Source: Candidatus Omnitrophota bacterium (GTDB lineage: Bacteria; Omnitrophota; Gorgyraeia; Gygaellales; Profunditerraquicolaceae). Taken from it: DNA of 64,000 nt. The stretch spans positions 296,793 to 360,792 of the forward strand of contig JAQUQW010000001.1 of NCBI GenBank assembly GCA_028716245.1, read 5' to 3'. Numbering within the stretch: position 1 is the first letter of the stretch; every line of letters starts with the position of its first letter. The notes under the pieces were generated by a model, which was not told where the DNA came from, searched no databases, and saw nothing but the letters and a program-made list of their open reading frames with translations. Positions 4,912 to 63,498 of this stretch are shown here, piece after piece. Made by a program: the position numbers and the translations under genes.

Positions 4912-6465
4912 ATGAAGAAAAAAGAACGACCCACCAAAGATATGGAAAAATTGATTGCCTTGGGCAAACAGAAGGGTTTTCTTACTTACGATGAAGTCAA
5001 TGATCTTCTGCCCGAGGATCTTTCCAGCACCGTGGCCATCGACCATCTTTTTGAGTTGCTGGGCAATGAAGACATCCAGGTAGTTGAAGGCGAGGAGGAT
5101 GCCGGCTTGTCCGCAAGCCGGGCTGCCCAGGATAAACAAAATCTGGCTGCCAACCGGGAGGAGATTATTTGCGAACAGCTTAAGAGTGAAGAGCGTTTTA
5201 TGCCTTTAGATGATCCGGTAAAGATGTACTTGAAGCAGATGGGTTCAATTTCGCTATTGAGCCGGGAAAATGAAATCGAGCTGGCTAAAAAGATTGAGGA
5301 TGCCGAAGATAAATTCAAGCGCGCGGTCCTGGTGACTAAATTTGCCAGAAATGAGGTTTTAATTGTTGCCAATGATATCTTGGAAGACAAGATTAATATG
5401 GAAGAGGTGGTTAAAGAAGATATCCGGATAAAAAAAAGCAGCGTCCTGGGAAGGTTTAAGCGTATTTTAGCCAAAGCTAAGCAGACCCGCAGCGATAGTA
5501 ATGCGATTAATCTGATATTACAGCTTAACTTTACAACTTCCGTAATTGAAGCCGCGGTGCGTAAGCTGAGCCTTTTGATCCGGGAGCTTGATTATCTGAA
5601 GCGTTCGGGAAAAAGGAGTAATCTGCGCTGCCGCCAAATACTAAAAGAACTTGCTCAGCCCTACGGTAAAATTAAAGAGCAGATGAAGTTGATAAAATCT
5701 GCGCATCTTAAGTTTAGCCGCACGAAGAAAAAACTAGTAGAGGCAAACCTGCGCCTGGTTGTAAGTATTGCCAAAAAATATACTAATCGCGGCCTTTCCT
5801 TTTTGGATTTAATACAAGAAGGAAATATCGGATTGATGCGTGCGGTAGAGAAATTTGAATATAAACGCGGCTACAAATTTTCCACTTACGCAACCTGGTG
5901 GATCCGCCAGGCAATAACCCGTTCAATTGCCGATCAGGCGCGGACCATCAGGATACCGGTGCATATGACCGAAACGATCAATAAGATAATCCGTTTCTCA
6001 AGGGTCTTTGTCCAGAAGAACGGGCGTGAGCCCACTCCTGAGGAGATCGCCCATAAAATGCGTTTTCCGCAGGGTAAAATAAAATCCATATTAAAGATTG
6101 CGCAGGAGCCCATTTCATTACAGATGCCCATCGGGGATGAAGGGGATACGCATTTTGGGGATTTTATTCAGGATAAAAAAGCGGTTTCCCCCGCCAATGA
6201 AACCGTCCGTTCCATGCTCAAAGACGAAATGAATTCCGCTTTAAGTACCTTGACTGAAAGAGAGAAAAAAATCCTGGTTTTGCGTTTTGGTATCCAAGAC
6301 GGAGCCGCGCGCACTTTAGAAGAGGTAGGCAATGTTTTTAAGGTTACCCGCGAAAGAGTCAGGCAGATTGAGGCTAAAGCTTTAAAGAAACTCAGGCATC
6401 CGTCACGTTCGCGCAGATTGCGCACCTTTATGGATATGACATTGGCACACCAAAGGGAATATTGA
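4912..6465 (+). CDS. rpoD: RNA polymerase sigma-70 factor
   Basis: Region 2 ([28 protein letters not shown]), region 3 and region 4 ([29 protein letters not shown]). dnaG-rpoD synteny. Confidence 0.9.
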
Positions 6466-14672: not shown

Positions 14673-15692
14673 ATGATTATCGTCTTAAAACCTCAAGCAA
14701 CCGAAGCAGAAGTTAACCACATTATCGAAAAAGTAAAGTCTTTGGGCTTGACTCCGCATGTTTCTAAAGGTTCGGAGAGGACAATTATCGGGGTTATCGG
14801 CCCGGAGGACGTATTAAGGGTCACTCCTTTGGAAGCTTTTCCCGGGGTAGAAAATGTTATTCCGGTACTGGCGCCTTTTAGGCTGGTTTCCCGAGAGTTT
14901 AAGAAAGATGATTCGGTAATCGATCTGGGAAAAGGAGTAAAGATTGGCGGTAAAGAGATAGTGATTATGGCCGGACCCTGCACCATTGAAAATATCGACA
15001 GCCTTTTTGAGATTGCCAGGGAAGTGAAGAAAGCCGGAGCAACAGTATTGCGTGGAGGGGCTTTTAAGCCCAGGACATCTCCATATAGCTTTCAAGGTTT
15101 AGGCAAAGCAGGGCTGCAGATGCTTCGGGAAGTAGGTAATGAATTGAGCCTGGTTACGGTAAGCGAGGTAATGGATAGCCGCGATGTGGCCTTAGTTGCC
15201 GATTATGTGGATGTTTTGCAAATTGGCTGCCGGAACATGCAGAATTTCAATCTTTTAAAAGAGGTGGGAGCGACTAAAAAACCGGTAGTCTTGAAACGCG
15301 GAATGGCTTCTACAGTTAAGGATATGCTAATGTCGGCGGAGTATATTCTAAGCGCGGGGAACTTTTCGGTAATCCTTTGCGAAAGGGGAATTCGCACATT
15401 TGAAGATTCTACGCGCAATACTTTGGACATAAGCGCGGTGCCGGTTGCCAAGCAGCTTTCGCATCTGCCGATTATCGTTGACCCTTCGCATGCTGCCGGA
15501 AAATGGGGCTTGGTTCCGGCATTAGCTAGGGCTGGTATTGCCGCAGGGGCAGATGGCTTGATTATCGAAGTGCATAATCATCCCGAAGAAGCTGTTTCTG
15601 ATGGCGCGCAATCACTGGTTCCGGATAGATTTTTAAGCCTGATGGGTGAACTCAAAAGCATTGCCAATTCCATAGGAAGAAAAATTTCATGA
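14673..15692 (+). CDS. aroF: 3-deoxy-7-phosphoheptulonate (DAHP) synthase, type I-beta with N-terminal ferredoxin-like regulatory domain
   Basis: KDO8PS-like core ([27 protein letters not shown]) plus an 80-aa or so N-terminal domain, as in Thermotoga-type DAHPS. Confidence 0.8.
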
Positions 15693-23901: not shown

Positions 23902-23966
23902 CTAGGGAGCGCTTCTATTTTTCTTTCAGAACTATGTAACAAAAAAAATAGAAACGGTCCCTAGTT
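23902..23966. terminator. bidirectional intrinsic terminator hairpin between convergent genes
   Basis: CTAGGGAGCGCTTCTATTTTT at 23902-23922 is complementary, with 2 mismatches, to AAAAATAGAAACGGTCCCTAG at 23944-23964. It has T-runs on both sides. Confidence 0.6.
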
Positions 23967-27234: not shown

Positions 27235-27272
27235 ACGACCCTATTTCCCGATTGGTTAGGAAATAGGGTCGT
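27235..27272. repeat. palindromic element (14-bp arms) in a divergent intergenic region
   Basis: ACGACCCTATTTCC ... GGAAATAGGGTCGT. It shares the AAATAGGG/CCCTATTT core with palindromes at 23902, 43681 and 44716. Confidence 0.4.
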
Positions 27273-27330
27273 TTGATGGAATCCAGGATGTTGACTTTTA
27301 ATAAAAGGGTGTTAGAATATTAAGAAATAA

Positions 27331-27420
27331 CACCCCGCGCTACCTGGCGTTTAATTGAATTGCGCCAGTATCCGCCTCGTGGCGGATTATAATGCGGGTG
27401 TGCCCTTGTGGGCAAGGAGG
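27331..27420 (+). promoter_or_regulatory. structured leader element copy A (ACCCCGCGC ... GCGGGTG family) immediately upstream of gatC
   Basis: CACCCCGCGC pairs with GCGGGTG, enclosing hairpins CTGGCG/CGCCAG and TCCGCC/GGCGGA. A terminal hairpin GTGCCC-TTGT-GGGCA abuts the SD AAGGAGG. It is homologous to the elements at 33631, 50851 and 61881. Confidence 0.4.
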
Positions 27421-33625: not shown

Positions 33626-33630
33626 CTAAT

Positions 33631-33727
33631 ACCCCGCGCTAAAGACACCCGACGCTAAGAGGTATTGTGTAGGTGTGCGCTAAGTAGCGCAAATTGCGCG
33701 GGTGTGCGCTTTCTGCGCAAGGAGGAG
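33631..33727 (+). promoter_or_regulatory. structured leader element copy B (longest copy, with internal duplication) upstream of the mgtC-bactofilin operon
   Basis: ACCCCGCGC ... GGTATTGTGTAGGTGTGCGCTAAGTAGCGC ... GCGCGGGTG, then hairpin TGCGC-TTTCT-GCGCA, then AAGGAGG. The 3' module co-varies with copy A. Confidence 0.4.
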
Positions 33728-44710: not shown

Positions 44711-44715
44711 AATCA

Positions 44716-44765
44716 GGGACCGTTTCTAGTTTTTTGGGGAAAAATAGAAACGTTCCCTAGTTTTT
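44716..44765 (+). terminator. intrinsic terminator after tilS (repeat-family hairpin)
   Basis: GGGACCGTTTCTA at 44716-44728 pairs with TAGAAACGTTCCC at 44745-44757, followed by TAGTTTTT. The right arm is nearly identical to the right arm at 23944-23966. Confidence 0.55.
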
Positions 44766-50657: not shown

Positions 50658-50730
50658 GCCGGCGTAGCTCAGTTGGCAGAGCGGCTGTTTTGTAAACAGC
50701 GGGTCGGGGGTTCAATTCCTCTCGCCGGCT
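50658..50730 (+). tRNA. tRNA-Thr (anticodon UGU)
   Basis: Manual fold. Acceptor stem GCCGGCG/CGCCGGC, anticodon stem GCTGT/ACAGC with loop TTTGTAA. Confidence 0.85.
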
Positions 50731-50746
50731 TTTGATAAATAAAATC

Positions 50747-50833
50747 GGGCAGGTACCCAAGTTGGTCAAAGGGGACAGACTGTAAATCTGTTGCACTTGT
50801 GCTTCAGAGGTTCGAATCCTCTCCTGCCCACCA
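50747..50833 (+). tRNA. tRNA-Tyr (anticodon GUA), long variable arm, CCA encoded
   Basis: Acceptor stem GGGCAGG/CCTGCCC, anticodon loop CTGTAAA, and a long extra arm. Confidence 0.85.
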
Positions 50834-50850
50834 TTTTAATACTTTCGCAG

Positions 50851-50900
50851 CACCCGGCGCTAATAGGTATTGCGTCGGTGCGCGCTAGGTAGCGCGGGAG
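50851..50900 (+). promoter_or_regulatory. structured leader element copy C, inserted between tRNA-Tyr and tRNA-Gly; its 3' end merges with the tRNA-Gly acceptor stem
   Basis: CACCCGGCGCTAATAGGTATTGCGTCGGTGCGCGCTAGGTAGCGCGGGAG is about 85% identical to the central part of copy B (33631-33690). The terminal GCGGGAG is the first 7 nt of tRNA-Gly. Confidence 0.4.
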
Positions 50901-50964
50901 TAGTTCAGTGGTAGAACAATAGCCTTCCAAGCTATATATGGGGGTTCGATTCCCCTCTCCCGCT
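50894..50964 (+). tRNA. tRNA-Gly (anticodon UCC)
   Basis: Acceptor stem GCGGGAG/CTCCCGC, anticodon stem ATAGC/GCTAT with loop CTTCCAA, discriminator U. Confidence 0.85.
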
Positions 50965-59450: not shown

Positions 59451-60661
59451 CAAAATTCATTGTACTGGTTGGAGACGGAATGGCGGATTATCCTATACAG
59501 GAGCTGGGAATGCGCACGCCTTTAGAGGCAGCGCGCATTCCCAATATGGACTTTATTGCCAAGAACGGATGCCTCGGTCAGGCCAAAACTATCCCGGATA
59601 AAATGACCCCGGCATCAGATGTAGCTAATCTTTCGATATTGGGATATGACCCCAAAAAATACTATACGGGAAGAGGGCCGCTGGAAGCGGCAAACCTGGG
59701 CATTGAATTAGAAGAAGATGATGTTGCTTTCCGCTGCAATTTGATTACGGCAACCGGCGATACCCTGCTTGATTACAGCGCCGGGCATATCAAATCGACG
59801 GAAGCTGAAAAATTGATTAAATTTCTCGATCAAAAAATAGGAACCAATAAAATGCGTTTTTATCCCGGAATAAGTTACCGCCATCTCCTTTTAGCCAAAG
59901 GCGCGGCCCAATTAAAACTCCATAATTTAAAATGCCTGCCCCCGCATGATATTGCCGGCCAAAGTATCAGCAAAAACCTGCCCAAAGGCGATAACGCGGA
60001 TTTAATCATTAAACTGATGCAGGATTCCCGGGAGCTTCTGGATAACCATGAAATTAATCATGTGCGCCTGGACTTAAAAGAGAACCCGGCAAATATGATC
60101 TGGCTCTGGGGGCAGGGCAGAAAGCCGGATATGCCTAAATTTATGGATAAATTCGGCCTATCCGGAAGCGTGATTTCAGCGGTAGACCTGATTAAAGGTT
60201 TAGGGCGCATCCTGGGCTTAGAGGTAATCAATGTCCCGGGAGCAACCGGTTATTATGATACCGATTATCTGGCTAAAGCAAAAGCGGCGATTAAATCCCT
60301 GAAGAAAAACGATTTTATTTTTGTGCATGTGGAGGCCCCTGATGAAGCCGGGCATAACGGTGATCTACGGGAAAAACTTACCGCGATTGAGAGGTTTGAC
60401 CAATTAGTGGTCGGCCCTCTTTTAGAATATTGTAAAACCAAGGATGATTTCCGGATAATGGTCTTACCGGACCACGCTACTCCGGTTGCCCTAAAAACGC
60501 ACACTGCCGAAATTATTCCCTTTGCGATTTACGGCAAAGATATACCCGCAAAGGATTTTCTTAATTACAGCGAAAAAGAAGCGCAGAAATCCGAATTATA
60601 TTTTGAAAATGGATATCAACTTATGGAATATTTTATTCAAGGGAGAATAAGCAATGCATAA
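59447..60661 (+). CDS. cofactor-independent phosphoglycerate mutase (archaeal ApgM-type) family protein; by context the probable non-canonical homoserine kinase ThrB2
   Basis: Alkaline-phosphatase-superfamily ApgM motifs (FIVLVGDGMADYP ... HVEAPDEAGHNGD ... VLPDHATP). Embedded between thrC and lysC, with no canonical thrB present. Confidence 0.75.
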   Translation: MTKFIVLVGDGMADYPIQELGMRTPLEAARIPNMDFIAKNGCLGQAKTIPDKMTPASDVANLSILGYDPKKYYTGRGPLEAANLGIELEEDDVAFRCNLITATGDTLLDYSAGHIKSTEAEKLIKFLDQKIGTNKMRFYPGISYRHLLLAKGAAQLKLHNLKCLPPHDIAGQSISKNLPKGDNADLIIKLMQDSRELLDNHEINHVRLDLKENPANMIWLWGQGRKPDMPKFMDKFGLSGSVISAVDLIKGLGRILGLEVINVPGATGYYDTDYLAKAKAAIKSLKKNDFIFVHVEAPDEAGHNGDLREKLTAIERFDQLVVGPLLEYCKTKDDFRIMVLPDHATPVALKTHTAEIIPFAIYGKDIPAKDFLNYSEKEAQKSELYFENGYQLMEYFIQGRISNA

Positions 60662-61874
60662 GGGTTTAGTTGTTCAGAAATACGGCGGATCATCGGTTGC
60701 CAACGTCCAACGCATTCAAAAAGTCGCCCAAAGGGTGGTCGGTTACAGCAAAAAAGGTTATCAACTGGTAATTGTTGTTTCAGCCTTGGGAGATACTACC
60801 GATGAATTAATTGCATTGGCGGATAAAATCAATCCCAATCCTTCGCAGCGGGAAATGGATATGTTGTTATCAACCGGAGAGCAGATCTCTGTGGCTCTTC
60901 TAGCCATGGCAATTCATAAATTAGGAGCCCGGGCGATTTCGTTTACCGGTTCGCAAGTCGGGATCATTACCGACACCAGCCACACCCAGGCCAGGATTAT
61001 CAAAATAAACGGGAATAAAATTAAAGAAGAGCTAAGAAAAGGCAATATCGTTATTGTCGCCGGTTTCCAGGGGGTAACTTTAAATCAAGATATTACTACT
61101 TTGGGCAGGGGAGGATCGGATTTAACTGCCGTAGCCCTGGCTAAAGAACTCAAAGCCGATTCTTGCGAAATTTACACGGATGTCGAAGGAATTTATACTA
61201 CCGATCCGCGGATTGAACCCCGGGCTAGAAAAATAAAAGAGATTACTTATGATGAGATGCTGGAAATGGCCTCACTCGGGGCCCAGGTAATGCAGGCGCG
61301 GTCCATCGAAGTAGCAAAAAAATTTGATGTGCCCTTGCATGTGCGTTCATCATTTAGCGATAAAAGCGGAACGATGATCATTAAGGAGGTAAAAAAGATG
61401 GAAGATGTGGTGGTCAACGGCGTAACTCTAAATAAAAATGAGGCAAAAATCACTCTTTGCGGGGTTCTGGATAAGCCGGGGGTTGCGGTAAAATTATTCA
61501 AGAACCTGGCAGACGCGGGGGTAAGCGTCGATATGATCGTCCAAAATGTAAGCCATACCCGCTCAACGGATATATCATTTACGATTGCCAAATCCGAAAG
61601 CGCCAAAGCCGCTAAAATCACTAAAATGGTAGCCAGGAAAATCAGAGCAGGAGAGGTCCTGCTGGATGAAGATATTGCCCAGGTTTCTATCGTCGGAGTA
61701 GGTATGAAATCGCACCGTGGTGTCGCGGCTAAAATGTTCGGGATACTGGCAGATAATAAAATTAACATTGAGATGATCTCTACTTCCGACATCAGCATAT
61801 CCTGTATTATCAAAAAAAAGAACGCCGAGATAGCGGTAAGAAAATTACATCAGGAGTTCGGGTTAAATAAATAG
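60654..61874 (+). CDS. lysC: aspartate kinase with two ACT domains
   Basis: VVQKYGGSSV, the TTLGRGGSD region, and C-terminal tandem ACT domains. Confidence 0.9.
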   Translation: MHKGLVVQKYGGSSVANVQRIQKVAQRVVGYSKKGYQLVIVVSALGDTTDELIALADKINPNPSQREMDMLLSTGEQISVALLAMAIHKLGARAISFTGSQVGIITDTSHTQARIIKINGNKIKEELRKGNIVIVAGFQGVTLNQDITTLGRGGSDLTAVALAKELKADSCEIYTDVEGIYTTDPRIEPRARKIKEITYDEMLEMASLGAQVMQARSIEVAKKFDVPLHVRSSFSDKSGTMIIKEVKKMEDVVVNGVTLNKNEAKITLCGVLDKPGVAVKLFKNLADAGVSVDMIVQNVSHTRSTDISFTIAKSESAKAAKITKMVARKIRAGEVLLDEDIAQVSIVGVGMKSHRGVAAKMFGILADNKINIEMISTSDISISCIIKKKNAEIAVRKLHQEFGLNK

Positions 61875-61880
61875 GTAAGG

Positions 61881-61930
61881 CACCCCGCGCTTAGCGGAAT
61901 TGTGCGGGTGTTGTCTCCGTAGACAAGGGG
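61881..61930 (+). promoter_or_regulatory. structured leader element copy D (minimal unit) immediately upstream of cimA/leuA-like gene
   Basis: CACCCCGCGC-TTAGCGGAATTGTG-CGGGTG, then hairpin TTGTCT-CCGT-AGACAA, then GGGG and the ATG at 61936. The 3' hairpin co-varies with copies A and B. Confidence 0.4.
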
Positions 61931-61935
61931 TAACC

Positions 61936-63498
61936 ATGCTTAAGGTAAAATTATACGATACCACGCTTCGTGACGGCTCACAGGCCGAAGGAATATCTTA
62001 TTCGGTAATGGATAAGGTCCGGATTGCCGAAGAACTGGATAAATTCGGTATTCATTTCATTGAAGGAGGCTGGCCCGGTTCAAACCCCAAAGACCGGGAA
62101 TTCTTTGAAAAGATAAGCAAGGCCAAACTTAAAAATTCCAAGATTGCCGCTTTTAGCATGACCCGCAGGCCAAATATCAAAGCTTCGCAGGATAGCAACA
62201 TCGGTGCCCTTTTAAAATCAGAAGCCCAAGTAATTACTATCGTCGGTAAAACCTGGGATTTTCATGTGGTTGAAGTTTTAAAAACTACGCTGGATGAAAA
62301 CTTGGAGATGATCAAAGATACCATCAGCTTTTTGATTAAAAAGGGTTTTGTCGTTTTTTATGACGCGGAGCATTTTTTCGACGCTTACCAGGCAAACAAA
62401 GATTACGCTTTAAAAACCTTGATTGCCGCCCAAGACGCAGGGGCTTCTGCCATCTGCCTTTGCGATACTAACGGCGGTTCCTTGCCAAACCAGATAACAA
62501 CTACAATCAGTGAAATCAAGCATAGGATTAAAGTTGATTTGGGTATCCACTGCCATAATGACGCCGGCGTTGCCATTGCCAATTCTTTAGCGGCCATCGA
62601 AGCCGGAGCAACCATCGTTCAAGGAACGATAAACGGCTACGGAGAACGCTGCGGAAATGCCGATCTGATCCCGATCATCGCGAATTTAAAGCTTAAACTA
62701 AAAAATAACTGCATTCCTGACCTGCAGCTAAAACAATTAACCCGCCTTTCGCATTTTGTCAGCGAAATCAGTAATATGCGCGTAAAAAATGAACAGCCTT
62801 TTGTCGGGGATTCAGCCTTCGCGCATAAAGGCGGGATGCATATTAACGCCATAATGAAAAATCCCTTAACTTATGAACATATCGACCCGTCCTTGGTCGG
62901 AAACCACCGCAGGATCCTGGTTTCCGAACTGGGCGGCAAAACCGGTATTTTGTTAAGGGCAAAAGATTTGAATTATGATTTAAGCAAAGGGGACCCGCAA
63001 ACCAAAAAAATCCTGGAATTAGTCCAAGACTTAGAGCATAAAGGATTCCAGTTTGAGGCTGCCGAAGCGTCCTTCCAGATATTGATGCAGAAGCATTTGA
63101 AAAAATTTAAGGGTTTCTTTGAACTTGAAGGATTTAAAGTAGTCATTGAAAAACGCCAAGATAAAAAGATCACATCGGAAGCGATTATAAAATTAAAGGT
63201 CAACGGAATCAAGGAACACACTGCTGCCGAAGGCGATGGCCCGGTAAACGCATTAGACAATGCCCTGCGCAAAGCGCTTAAAGACTTTTATCCGGCTTTG
63301 GCCAAAATGCACTTATCCGATTTTAAGGTGCGCGTTTTGGATGAAAAGGCCGGCACCGCGGCAAAAGTGCGGGTTTTAATCCAATCGCAGGATGAAAAAG
63401 ACACCTGGAACACCATCGGTGTCCATGAAAACATAATTGAAGCCAGCTGGCAGGCCTTAGTCGACAGCGTTGAATATAAACTTTTAAAAGATCAATAA
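61936..63498 (+). CDS. cimA: LeuA-family alpha-ketoacid C-acetyltransferase, most likely (R)-citramalate synthase
   Basis: [23 protein letters not shown]-like barrel and [12 protein letters not shown], with a C-terminal LeuA-dimer regulatory domain. Its length (about 520 aa) and its place in the Thr/Ile neighbourhood favour CimA over LeuA. ATG at 61936. Confidence 0.75.

Follow-up and report, generated by a model that had tools for sequence, protein, structure and literature searches.

The 50-nt element that precedes the citramalate synthase gene cimA in the 64,000-nt stretch of Candidatus Omnitrophota DNA analysed here (the window) is probably, at roughly two chances in three, one member of a phylum-wide Omnitrophota family of mobile or gain-and-loss palindromic repeats (REP/MITE-like) and not an amino-acid leader of cimA. 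The quoted sequence of this element, copy D, was verified at window positions 61881–61930 as an exact match. Members of the family recur, and their paired positions covary. They are present or absent at orthologous sites, nest in one another, sit in riboswitch loops, stand in sense orientation flush with SD sequences and show no target-site duplication. We infer that the family moves by a non-DDE route, probably one in which a single-strand hairpin is read, and that its role in the mRNA is passive or generic.

Copy D consists of two abutting hairpins (Table 1). In the first, P1, CACC pairs with GGUG to form the lower stem and CGCGC with GUGCG to form the upper stem; the second, hp2, leads directly into the SD of cimA. 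The first-pass annotation had described copy D as the minimal form of a motif whose core is a P1 helix, a box and an SD-proximal hairpin, and the consensus of the 189 covarying copies described below does consist of a P1 helix with its loop and a hairpin next to the SD. The "GGAATTGTG box" of that description is in fact two pieces: GGAAUU makes up the 3' part of the loop, and GUG opens the 3' strand of P1. The string GGAATTGTG/TTAGCGGAATT was likewise rejected as a signature of the motif, as exact TTAGCGGAATT occurs twice elsewhere in the window by chance, inside coding sequence and with the rest of the motif absent.

The gap between the aspartate kinase and cimA ORFs measures 61 nt, and the TAG stop codon of the kinase lies 6 nt 5' of copy D. 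A scan found no promoter-like or terminator-like sites near copy D or between the two genes, and copy D is thus intercistronic in an aspartate kinase–cimA transcript. In the centroid fold, both hairpins form and the SD is unpaired. Against shuffles, copy D had an energy z-score of only -0.5, so thermodynamics by itself is not significant, and the significance of the motif comes from its recurrence, not from its folding energy. Two candidate features of the element were discarded. Kissing between the P1 and hp2 loops is possible in copy D (GCGG with CCGU) but fails in other copies on inspection. A promoter within the element, for which TATAAG or TATAAT in some loops was considered, is inconsistent between copies, and the scan at copy D found none.

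Table 1. Coordinates of repeat copies, their neighbours and other features (positions are those of the window unless a locus is named)
Feature	Position	Strand	Details
Copy D, hairpin P1	61881–61910	+	R1 score 59.4 bits, E 3e-13; 9-bp hairpin with bulged C
Copy D, P1 5' strand	61881–84, 61885, 61886–90		CACC, bulged C, CGCGC
Copy D, P1 loop	61891–61901		11 nt, UUAGCGGAAUU
Copy D, P1 3' strand	61902–06, 61907–10		GUGCG (one G.U pair), GGUG
Copy D, hairpin hp2	61911–61926	+	UUGUCU-CCGU-AGACAA, 6 bp; abuts P1 on its 5' side and the SD on its 3' side
cimA ribosome-binding region	61927–61938	+	GGGG (SD) 61927–30, uaacc, AUG at 61936
Aspartate kinase gene	60654–61874	+	5' neighbour; AA_kinase and ACT (Pfam on orthologues)
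Citramalate synthase gene cimA	61936–63498	+	3' neighbour; HMGL-like, HCS_D2, LeuA_dimer
Nested copy upstream of gatC (AUG 27426)	27331–27414	+	Folding z -3.3; outer P1 halves CACCCCGCGCU and UGCGGGUG; inner P1-like hairpin 27343–27369, second hairpin 27371–27388; hp2 UGCCCUUGUGGGCA, then AGGAGG
Nested copy upstream of MgtC-family gene (AUG 33731)	33630–33719	+	Outer unit UACCCCGCGCU...GCGCGGGUG, hp2 33705–19; complete inner unit inside the outer one, P1 33646–75, hp2 33676–91
Copy in tRNA operon spacer	50851–50896	+	Thr-Tyr-[element]-Gly; P1 50851–80, hp2 50881–96
tRNA-Gly(UCC)	50894–50964
tRNA-Thr/tRNA-Tyr/tRNA-Gly cluster	50658–50964
Chance occurrences of TTAGCGGAATT	54283, 55608		Inside coding sequence
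Weak partial P1-like hairpin	15412–15438	-	CCGCGCUUAUguccaAAGUAUUGCGCG, E 0.28
Promoter-like pair	27291–27318		TTGACT-16-TAGAAT
12-bp perfect hairpin	27237–27271		GACCCTATTTCC...GGAAATAGGGTC
Second repeat, TAGAAACGKTCCCTAG	23902–23964, 44713–44760		Inverted doublets with A/T tracts
Repeat remnant, L001	8387–8404		CACCCCGCGCUUAUAAGG
CIRCE-type repeat, L002	18580–18615		Upstream of groES
CIRCE-type repeat, L003	17975–18010		Upstream of groES
CIRCE-type repeat, L004	17960–17995		Upstream of groES
Y1_Tnp gene, L120	5651–6142		163 aa; with flanking inverted repeats, 5600–6260
FMN aptamer with insertion, L133	4115–4328
FMN aptamer with insertion, L173	4252–4499
FMN aptamer with insertion, L174	10694–10862
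FMN aptamer with insertion, L193	5413–5585
FMN aptamer with insertion, L083	4197–4316
FMN aptamer with insertion, L144	5166–5381
c-di-GMP-I-GGC aptamer, L207	407–535		Antisense copy
c-di-GMP-I riboswitch and terminator, L223	329–590		Antisense copies
Inverted duplication, L163	1984–2325

Further copies were found in the window. The pattern CACCCNNCGCT-N8-20-GNNGGTG matched three times, against 0.00 in 100 shuffles, and a looser search combined with the covariance model gave six P1 units in total, distributed over four loci that are without exception intergenic and on the + strand. Besides copy D, these loci are the gene starts of gatC and of a gene of the MgtC family, and a tRNA operon, where the last 3 nt of hp2 are nt 1–3 of tRNA-Gly(UCC). 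Rfam 15 gave no family match at any of the four loci, either at the gathering threshold or at E<=5–10. A weak partial P1-like hairpin on the opposite strand lies within a coding region and may be a chance match or a decayed intragenic copy. By eye, the gatC copy was seen to follow a promoter-like pair at a distance of ~12 nt, which would put this copy at the extreme 5' end of its mRNA; a 12-bp perfect hairpin lies just 5' of that pair. In the tRNA cluster, the repeat fills the Tyr–Gly spacer; the order of the cluster resembles that of E. coli thrU-tyrU-glyT-thrT-tufB.

A covariance model built from 17 copies detected 189 copies in ~0.94 Mb of Omnitrophota DNA (28 in the window and 15 loci, 137 in 100 metagenome loci, and 24 in 22 further loci, with none in two viral contigs). 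Beyond the seeded copies, about one extra copy was found per 17 kb. The consensus unit is ~46–50 nt long and GC-rich, and is composed of P1 (lower stem CACC/GGUG, a bulged C that is conserved, and a GC-rich upper stem of 5 bp) and the abutting hp2. P1 spans 30–31 nt including the conserved bulge and is extragenic and present in high copy number. Its loop of ~12 nt has the consensus UUAUAAGGAAUU, with G, G, and A conserved at 87%, 94%, and 73%, respectively, at positions that the search pattern had left free. The stem of hp2 (5–6 bp) is variable in sequence and its loop follows an NNGU consensus. There were 83 distinct hp2 sequences among 120, with near-perfect pairing, so something maintains the structure. 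Paired cells amounted to 94%, compared to 80% in shuffles and 28–56% in slid controls. Double changes were found in 12 of the 14 pairs, and every hp2 pair covaried; pair 6–86, for example, was CG in 66 copies, GC in 28, AU in 27, and UA in five.

The taxonomic range of the family was assessed by a genome scan with an exact pattern. About 109 of the 120 matches listed were chance occurrences inside genes of high-GC genomes; since this first pattern was too GC-rich, the pattern used for metagenomes was AT-anchored. The 11 true matches among those listed all came from low-GC MAGs, ten labelled Omnitrophota and one Planctomycetales, and the family is, by these 11 matches, confined to Omnitrophota-type MAGs. 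The CimA relatives with a source name (120 among the matches listed, 76–96% identity) were labelled Candidatus Omnitrophota/Omnitrophica or plain "bacterium". The genome thus belongs to Candidatus Omnitrophota (PVC group), and the Firmicutes and T-box framing in which the element had been discussed is not applicable. The accompanying statement that T-box sequence is absent was correct: Rfam gave no match at the gathering threshold in the window, and none at E<=10 in 61700–62100. Carriage by phages was rejected as well, as two pattern matches were obtained in 2.9 M viral contigs and neither was confirmed by the covariance model. Nothing in the literature searched describes an element of this kind in Omnitrophota, and the core sequence did not turn up in any relevant context. 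The dispersed double-hairpin repeat family is apparently new to Rfam and to the literature searched.

The position of the copies relative to genes was highly regular. An SD and a same-strand ORF start were located within a few nt of the model end for 98 of 165 copies, with the start codon 0–6 nt after the model end, versus only three copies with an antisense gene start beside their 5' end. AGGAG followed hp2 in most copies. The left flank was W-R-R, often the stop codon of the upstream gene. The 91 distinct downstream ORFs matched 110 Pfam families with no more than five members per family (ferritin, five; PilZ, five; L6, four; enolase, three; P-II, three; also S8, GroES/EL, SSB, GDH, and GS). 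Other copies immediately precede tRNA-Gly, -Arg, and -Pro, and their hp2 extends over nt 1–3 of the tRNA. The motif, which precedes genes of 110 Pfam families and tRNAs, is not tied to branched-chain amino-acid genes. Russian-doll nesting and direct tandem arrays were common, and a lone inverted pair was found between divergent genes. No copy was seen convincingly within coding sequence.

Copies were also found in riboswitches. The P3 loops of FMN aptamers held five copies antisense to the riboswitch and one in sense orientation, and one copy was located at the 5' edge of a cobalamin aptamer. In the FMN aptamers of several Omnitrophota, the repeat forms a 55–57-nt insertion in the P3 loop, and the Rfam gathering score is still passed. 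The aptamer with the sense copy in P3 (L144) has a second, 47-nt insertion in its last hairpin. An antisense copy lies inside a hairpin of a c-di-GMP-I-GGC aptamer. In a 5' UTR elsewhere, a c-di-GMP-I riboswitch and terminator are followed by three tandem antisense copies before the gene. On another contig, two inverted near-identical copies of a segment comprising the repeat, tRNA-Gly(GCC) and a downstream gene start were observed; this inverted duplication may be an assembly fold-back artefact, not biology.

Gain and loss of the element were examined at nine orthologous aspartate kinase–cimA junctions, the window included. The site was filled in the window (simple unit), L249 and L003 (degenerate); in L249, the outer unit and hp2 are the same as in copy D, and a further unit is nested in the loop. 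It was empty in L247, L248, L001, L002, L250, and L004, where the junction reads AAAUAAGAGGUAnnnAUG or the genes overlap. The genome closest to the window among these, L247 (92% nucleotide identity), is thus without the element at cimA. On a neighbour-joining tree of cimA, every filled genome has an empty sister, and presence does not follow the tree. The first-pass annotation had made its regulatory reading depend on conservation of the element upstream of cimA in sister genomes; it is missing in six of nine, and by this test of the annotation's own the regulatory reading for cimA is refuted. The three filled alleles have a common flank, so ancient allele sharing by recombination is possible as opposed to repeated insertion and excision.

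Filled and empty sites also delimit the element. The SD and spacer 3' of it are native at cimA: AGGGGUAAcc in the window matches AAGGGGUAAuu in L002. The same AAGGGGUAA/AAGAGGUA is present in genomes without the element, so the SD region of cimA lies outside the repeat. The idea that the SD is carried by the element was rejected on the basis of these comparisons. In each independent comparison of filled and empty sites, the right edge of the element was exactly the native SD.

Similar variation was seen at other sites. A copy identical to copy D at 45 of 46 positions, hp2 included, is located upstream of a PilZ gene in L001. The site 5' of aspartate kinase has a full copy in L002, only a 5' remnant in L001 and none in the window. 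In the groES/groEL region, the copy lies between the two genes in L002 and upstream of groES in L004. The L001 remnant is joined straight to the SD; it looks as if a deletion had fused the AAGG in the P1 loop with that in the SD, a hint that the repeat may be lost through microhomology. A CIRCE-type inverted repeat, TTAGCACTC-N9-GAGTGCTA, and a TTGACA/TATAAT-like promoter were observed upstream of groES. This inverted repeat, presumably the HrcA operator, is kept with or without the double-hairpin repeat.

The flanks of the copies bear no target-site duplication: the longest word shared by the two flanks averaged 3.41 nt versus 3.36 after permutation, and shared words of at least 5 nt numbered 10 versus 13.5 expected. 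GGTAA around copy D (AGGTAA around its orthologues) was rejected as a duplication because it is at chance level, with the flanks of the family sharing no more than permuted ones. A cut-and-paste DDE mechanism is therefore unlikely, and transposition is not proven by any footprint. A tblastn search of 0.98 Mb, with RAYT and IS200 TnpA sequences as queries, found a single Y1_Tnp gene (Pfam E 8e-17) in this sample. The protein is RAYT-like (HUH "NHVHL", "YIHNNP"), and its gene is located between ftsW and murG. On either side of this gene stands an inverted repeat, TAGAAACGGTC..., distinct from the CACC family, which points to a REP/RAYT-like system in the phylum associated with another repeat. 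No mobilising enzyme for the CACC-family repeat was identified in the 0.98 Mb sampled. Long-range pairing of unmatched half-sites around a transposase was considered and nothing was found.

A second repeat, TAGAAACGKTCCCTAG, was observed at two gene ends of the window, with four matches in the window versus 0.67 expected. The inverted repeats flanking the Y1_Tnp gene are very similar to it, and the second repeat and this gene together look like a REPIN/RAYT system in Omnitrophota.

Whether the structure is maintained in RNA or in DNA was addressed via mismatches. G.U and A.C mismatches were equally rare in P1 (nine versus nine of 1215 cells) and similarly so in hp2 (three versus four of 726 cells). 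The absence of a wobble excess fits young copies derived from paired masters or maintenance of a palindrome at the DNA level, and does not specifically favour selection acting on the RNA. Coding-strand bias within loci was 95%, so sense orientation is inseparable from replication-strand bias; 11 of the 13 minority-strand copies were antisense, non-SD copies. The predicted unpaired probability of the SD across the family was 0.51 with the native element, 0.49 with the element deleted and 0.46 with the element shuffled; at copy D, it was 0.45 native versus 0.54 deleted. On these predictions, the fold of the repeat appears to be self-contained and roughly neutral for the SD. A strong "insulator" effect on SD accessibility was rejected, as the effect is detectable statistically but small, and of opposite direction in copy D. 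The extreme bias towards sense, SD-flush placement goes beyond neutral selfish insertion and needs target specificity or selection at the RNA level.

The explanation we favour is that the family behaves as a REP/MITE-type repeat, non-autonomous and either mobile or subject to gain and loss. Copies are gained and lost at orthologous sites, and near-identical ones are found at unrelated sites. The nested and tandem arrays and the copies inside riboswitches and antisense in a 5' UTR are placements of a selfish type. Counting against this explanation are the extreme sense bias, the conserved loop GG and the maintained pairing of hp2, as well as the failure to find a duplication footprint, or a mobilising enzyme in the DNA sampled. 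The mechanism would be recombinational or would involve recognition of a single-strand hairpin, either being likelier than DDE cut-and-paste; enzymes of this kind read features such as the asymmetric bulge conserved here. At cimA, copy D would be co-transcribed in the aspartate kinase–cimA mRNA and fold as two hairpins that leave the SD single-stranded. Given the self-contained fold and the free SD, copy D would at most serve as a generic structure between cistrons, as an insulator or as a barrier to RNA decay, and would not act as an amino-acid sensor.

A more ambitious proposal, which we consider rather doubtful, is that the family is more than junk: either a mobile element that targets SD edges, tRNA 5' ends and hairpin loops without target-site duplication, or a domesticated expression module. 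If either were true, a large share of Omnitrophota genes would have one cis element in common. In the domesticated version, P1 would show an SD-like AAGGA and hp2 would stack on the true SD, with the ribosome or a global RNA-binding regulator as the reader.

An unlikely alternative to the mobile repeat is that the unit works as a generic RNA-level expression module, with mobility being secondary. The P1 loop would display the SD-like AAGGA, hp2 would present the true SD, and the reader would be a CsrA-like dimer (binding the loop GGA and the SD GGA) or the 30S subunit, for which the loop would be a standby or stabilising site. Arrays of tandem units would then be sponges or multi-site leaders. 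The ratio of 98 sense to three antisense copies at gene starts with start codons 0–6 nt past the model end, the coincidence of the right edge with the native SD in independent comparisons and the conservation of the loop GG (87–94%) and the next A (73%) at unconstrained positions all agree with such a module. So does the presence of ferritin, enolase, GroES/EL, ribosomal proteins, GDH, and GS among the downstream genes, all of which are usually highly expressed types. The SD was also slightly more open with the native element than with a shuffled insert, but this effect on accessibility is small, and with 95% coding-strand bias the sense orientation could equally be a replication-strand bias. 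Moreover, the unit also occurs 5' of tRNAs, where translation is irrelevant, antisense copies lie in riboswitch loops and 5' UTRs, close relatives lose copies without replacement, and G.U is not in excess over A.C. A GGA-binding factor would also leave the strict conservation of the CACC-C...GGUG stem unexplained.

It is very improbable that the unit is an RNA-processing signal or a small self-cleaving ribozyme that cuts polycistronic RNA at the hp2/SD or hp2/tRNA junction. Its location in intercistronic gaps and immediately before tRNAs, where hp2 extends over tRNA nt 1–3, would suit such a role, as would the conserved bulge and loop nucleotides and the optional extra stems, which give three-way-junction forms of the kind that recall ribozyme families. 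However, few single-stranded nucleotides are conserved, no Rfam ribozyme or other family matched even at E<=10, and antisense copies, nested copies and presence/absence polymorphism are unexpected of an essential processing site. A riboswitch or attenuator that controls cimA and branched-chain amino-acid biosynthesis in cis, by a mechanism unlike the T-box, has next to no probability: the element is structured, covarying and immediately upstream of the cimA SD, but it is missing there in most relatives, the 91 downstream genes lack functional coherence, the motif also precedes tRNAs, the site has no terminator, no promoter and no alternative fold in which the SD is masked, and the host lies outside the Firmicutes.

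For annotation, this means that the motif should not be labelled as a riboswitch or an amino-acid leader. At a density of about one per 10–20 kb in an uncultivated phylum, the repeat inflates predictions of intergenic structure and expands riboswitch aptamers. It is also a handy marker of recent genome dynamics in Omnitrophota populations.

Among known systems, the metabolite riboswitches differ from the repeat in having a coherent set of downstream genes and conservation at the orthologous position. The T-box shares with copy D a location upstream of an amino-acid biosynthesis gene, but copy D has no specifier loop, T-box sequence or terminator/antiterminator and is about one fifth as long. 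Integron attC sites, which have R/L boxes with an AAC...GTT core and separate mobile cassettes devoid of promoters, differ as well: the stems of the repeat are CACC/GGUG without the AAC/GTT core, and the genes on either side of it belong to the core genome and keep their synteny in all relatives. In CsrA/RsmA leaders and CsrB/RsmZ sponges, GGA in hairpin loops is combined with a GGA-containing SD 10–60 nt away or arranged in arrays of GGA hairpins. Copies with a GGA loop ~30 nt upstream of a GGA-containing SD resemble these leaders, as do the hairpin arrays. Unlike in CsrA leaders, GGA is not universal (many copies have GGU or UGA), the stem is far more conserved than the loop, and copies also precede tRNAs and occur antisense.

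Rickettsia palindromic elements and the GC clusters of yeast mitochondria are GC-rich palindromic modules in an AT-rich background, and the former insert in frame into protein genes. Like them, the Omnitrophota repeat is GC-rich against an AT-rich background and inserts in tolerant sites, including loops of structured RNAs and its own copies; hosts and sequences differ, and the Omnitrophota copies are not convincingly in coding sequence. Correia elements of Neisseria, enterobacterial ERIC/IRU and YPAL of Yersinia are dispersed, non-coding, strain-polymorphic and located near genes. They form stable hairpins in 5' UTR or intercistronic RNA and can alter mRNA processing or stability; they measure 100–170 bp, are bounded by terminal inverted repeats and target duplications, and are found in either orientation. 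The Omnitrophota repeat is likewise dispersed, polymorphic and near genes, with a hairpin in intercistronic or 5' UTR RNA, but it is ~50 nt long, shows no target-site duplication and is nearly always in sense orientation and SD-flush.

By definition (PMC3733652), REP sequences are extragenic imperfect palindromes of 20–40 bp, high in copy number, that carry a GTAG or CGTC tag, unpaired, at one of their ends. The REP/BIME/REPIN elements of Proteobacteria, associated with RAYT, share with our family the small imperfect palindromes in high intergenic copy number, often within operons (PMC3733652). Further likenesses are hairpins in mRNA, a conserved asymmetry of the stem, no target-site duplication and presence that varies between relatives. 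In contrast to REP, the Omnitrophota repeat lacks the unpaired tag, with GTAG seen only in some hp2 loop/stem junctions, and its first hairpin is accompanied by another whose sequence varies. REP sequences lie mainly downstream of coding regions, whereas the Omnitrophota repeat is flush with the 5' side of the next gene's SD, and its units are nested or in direct tandem instead of forming the inverted doublets of REPINs. Sense placement exactly flush with the SD, units nested within units and a bulge that is conserved in otherwise perfect stems are unusual among bacterial palindromic repeats and point to a targeted single-strand insertion mechanism or a shared post-transcriptional module.
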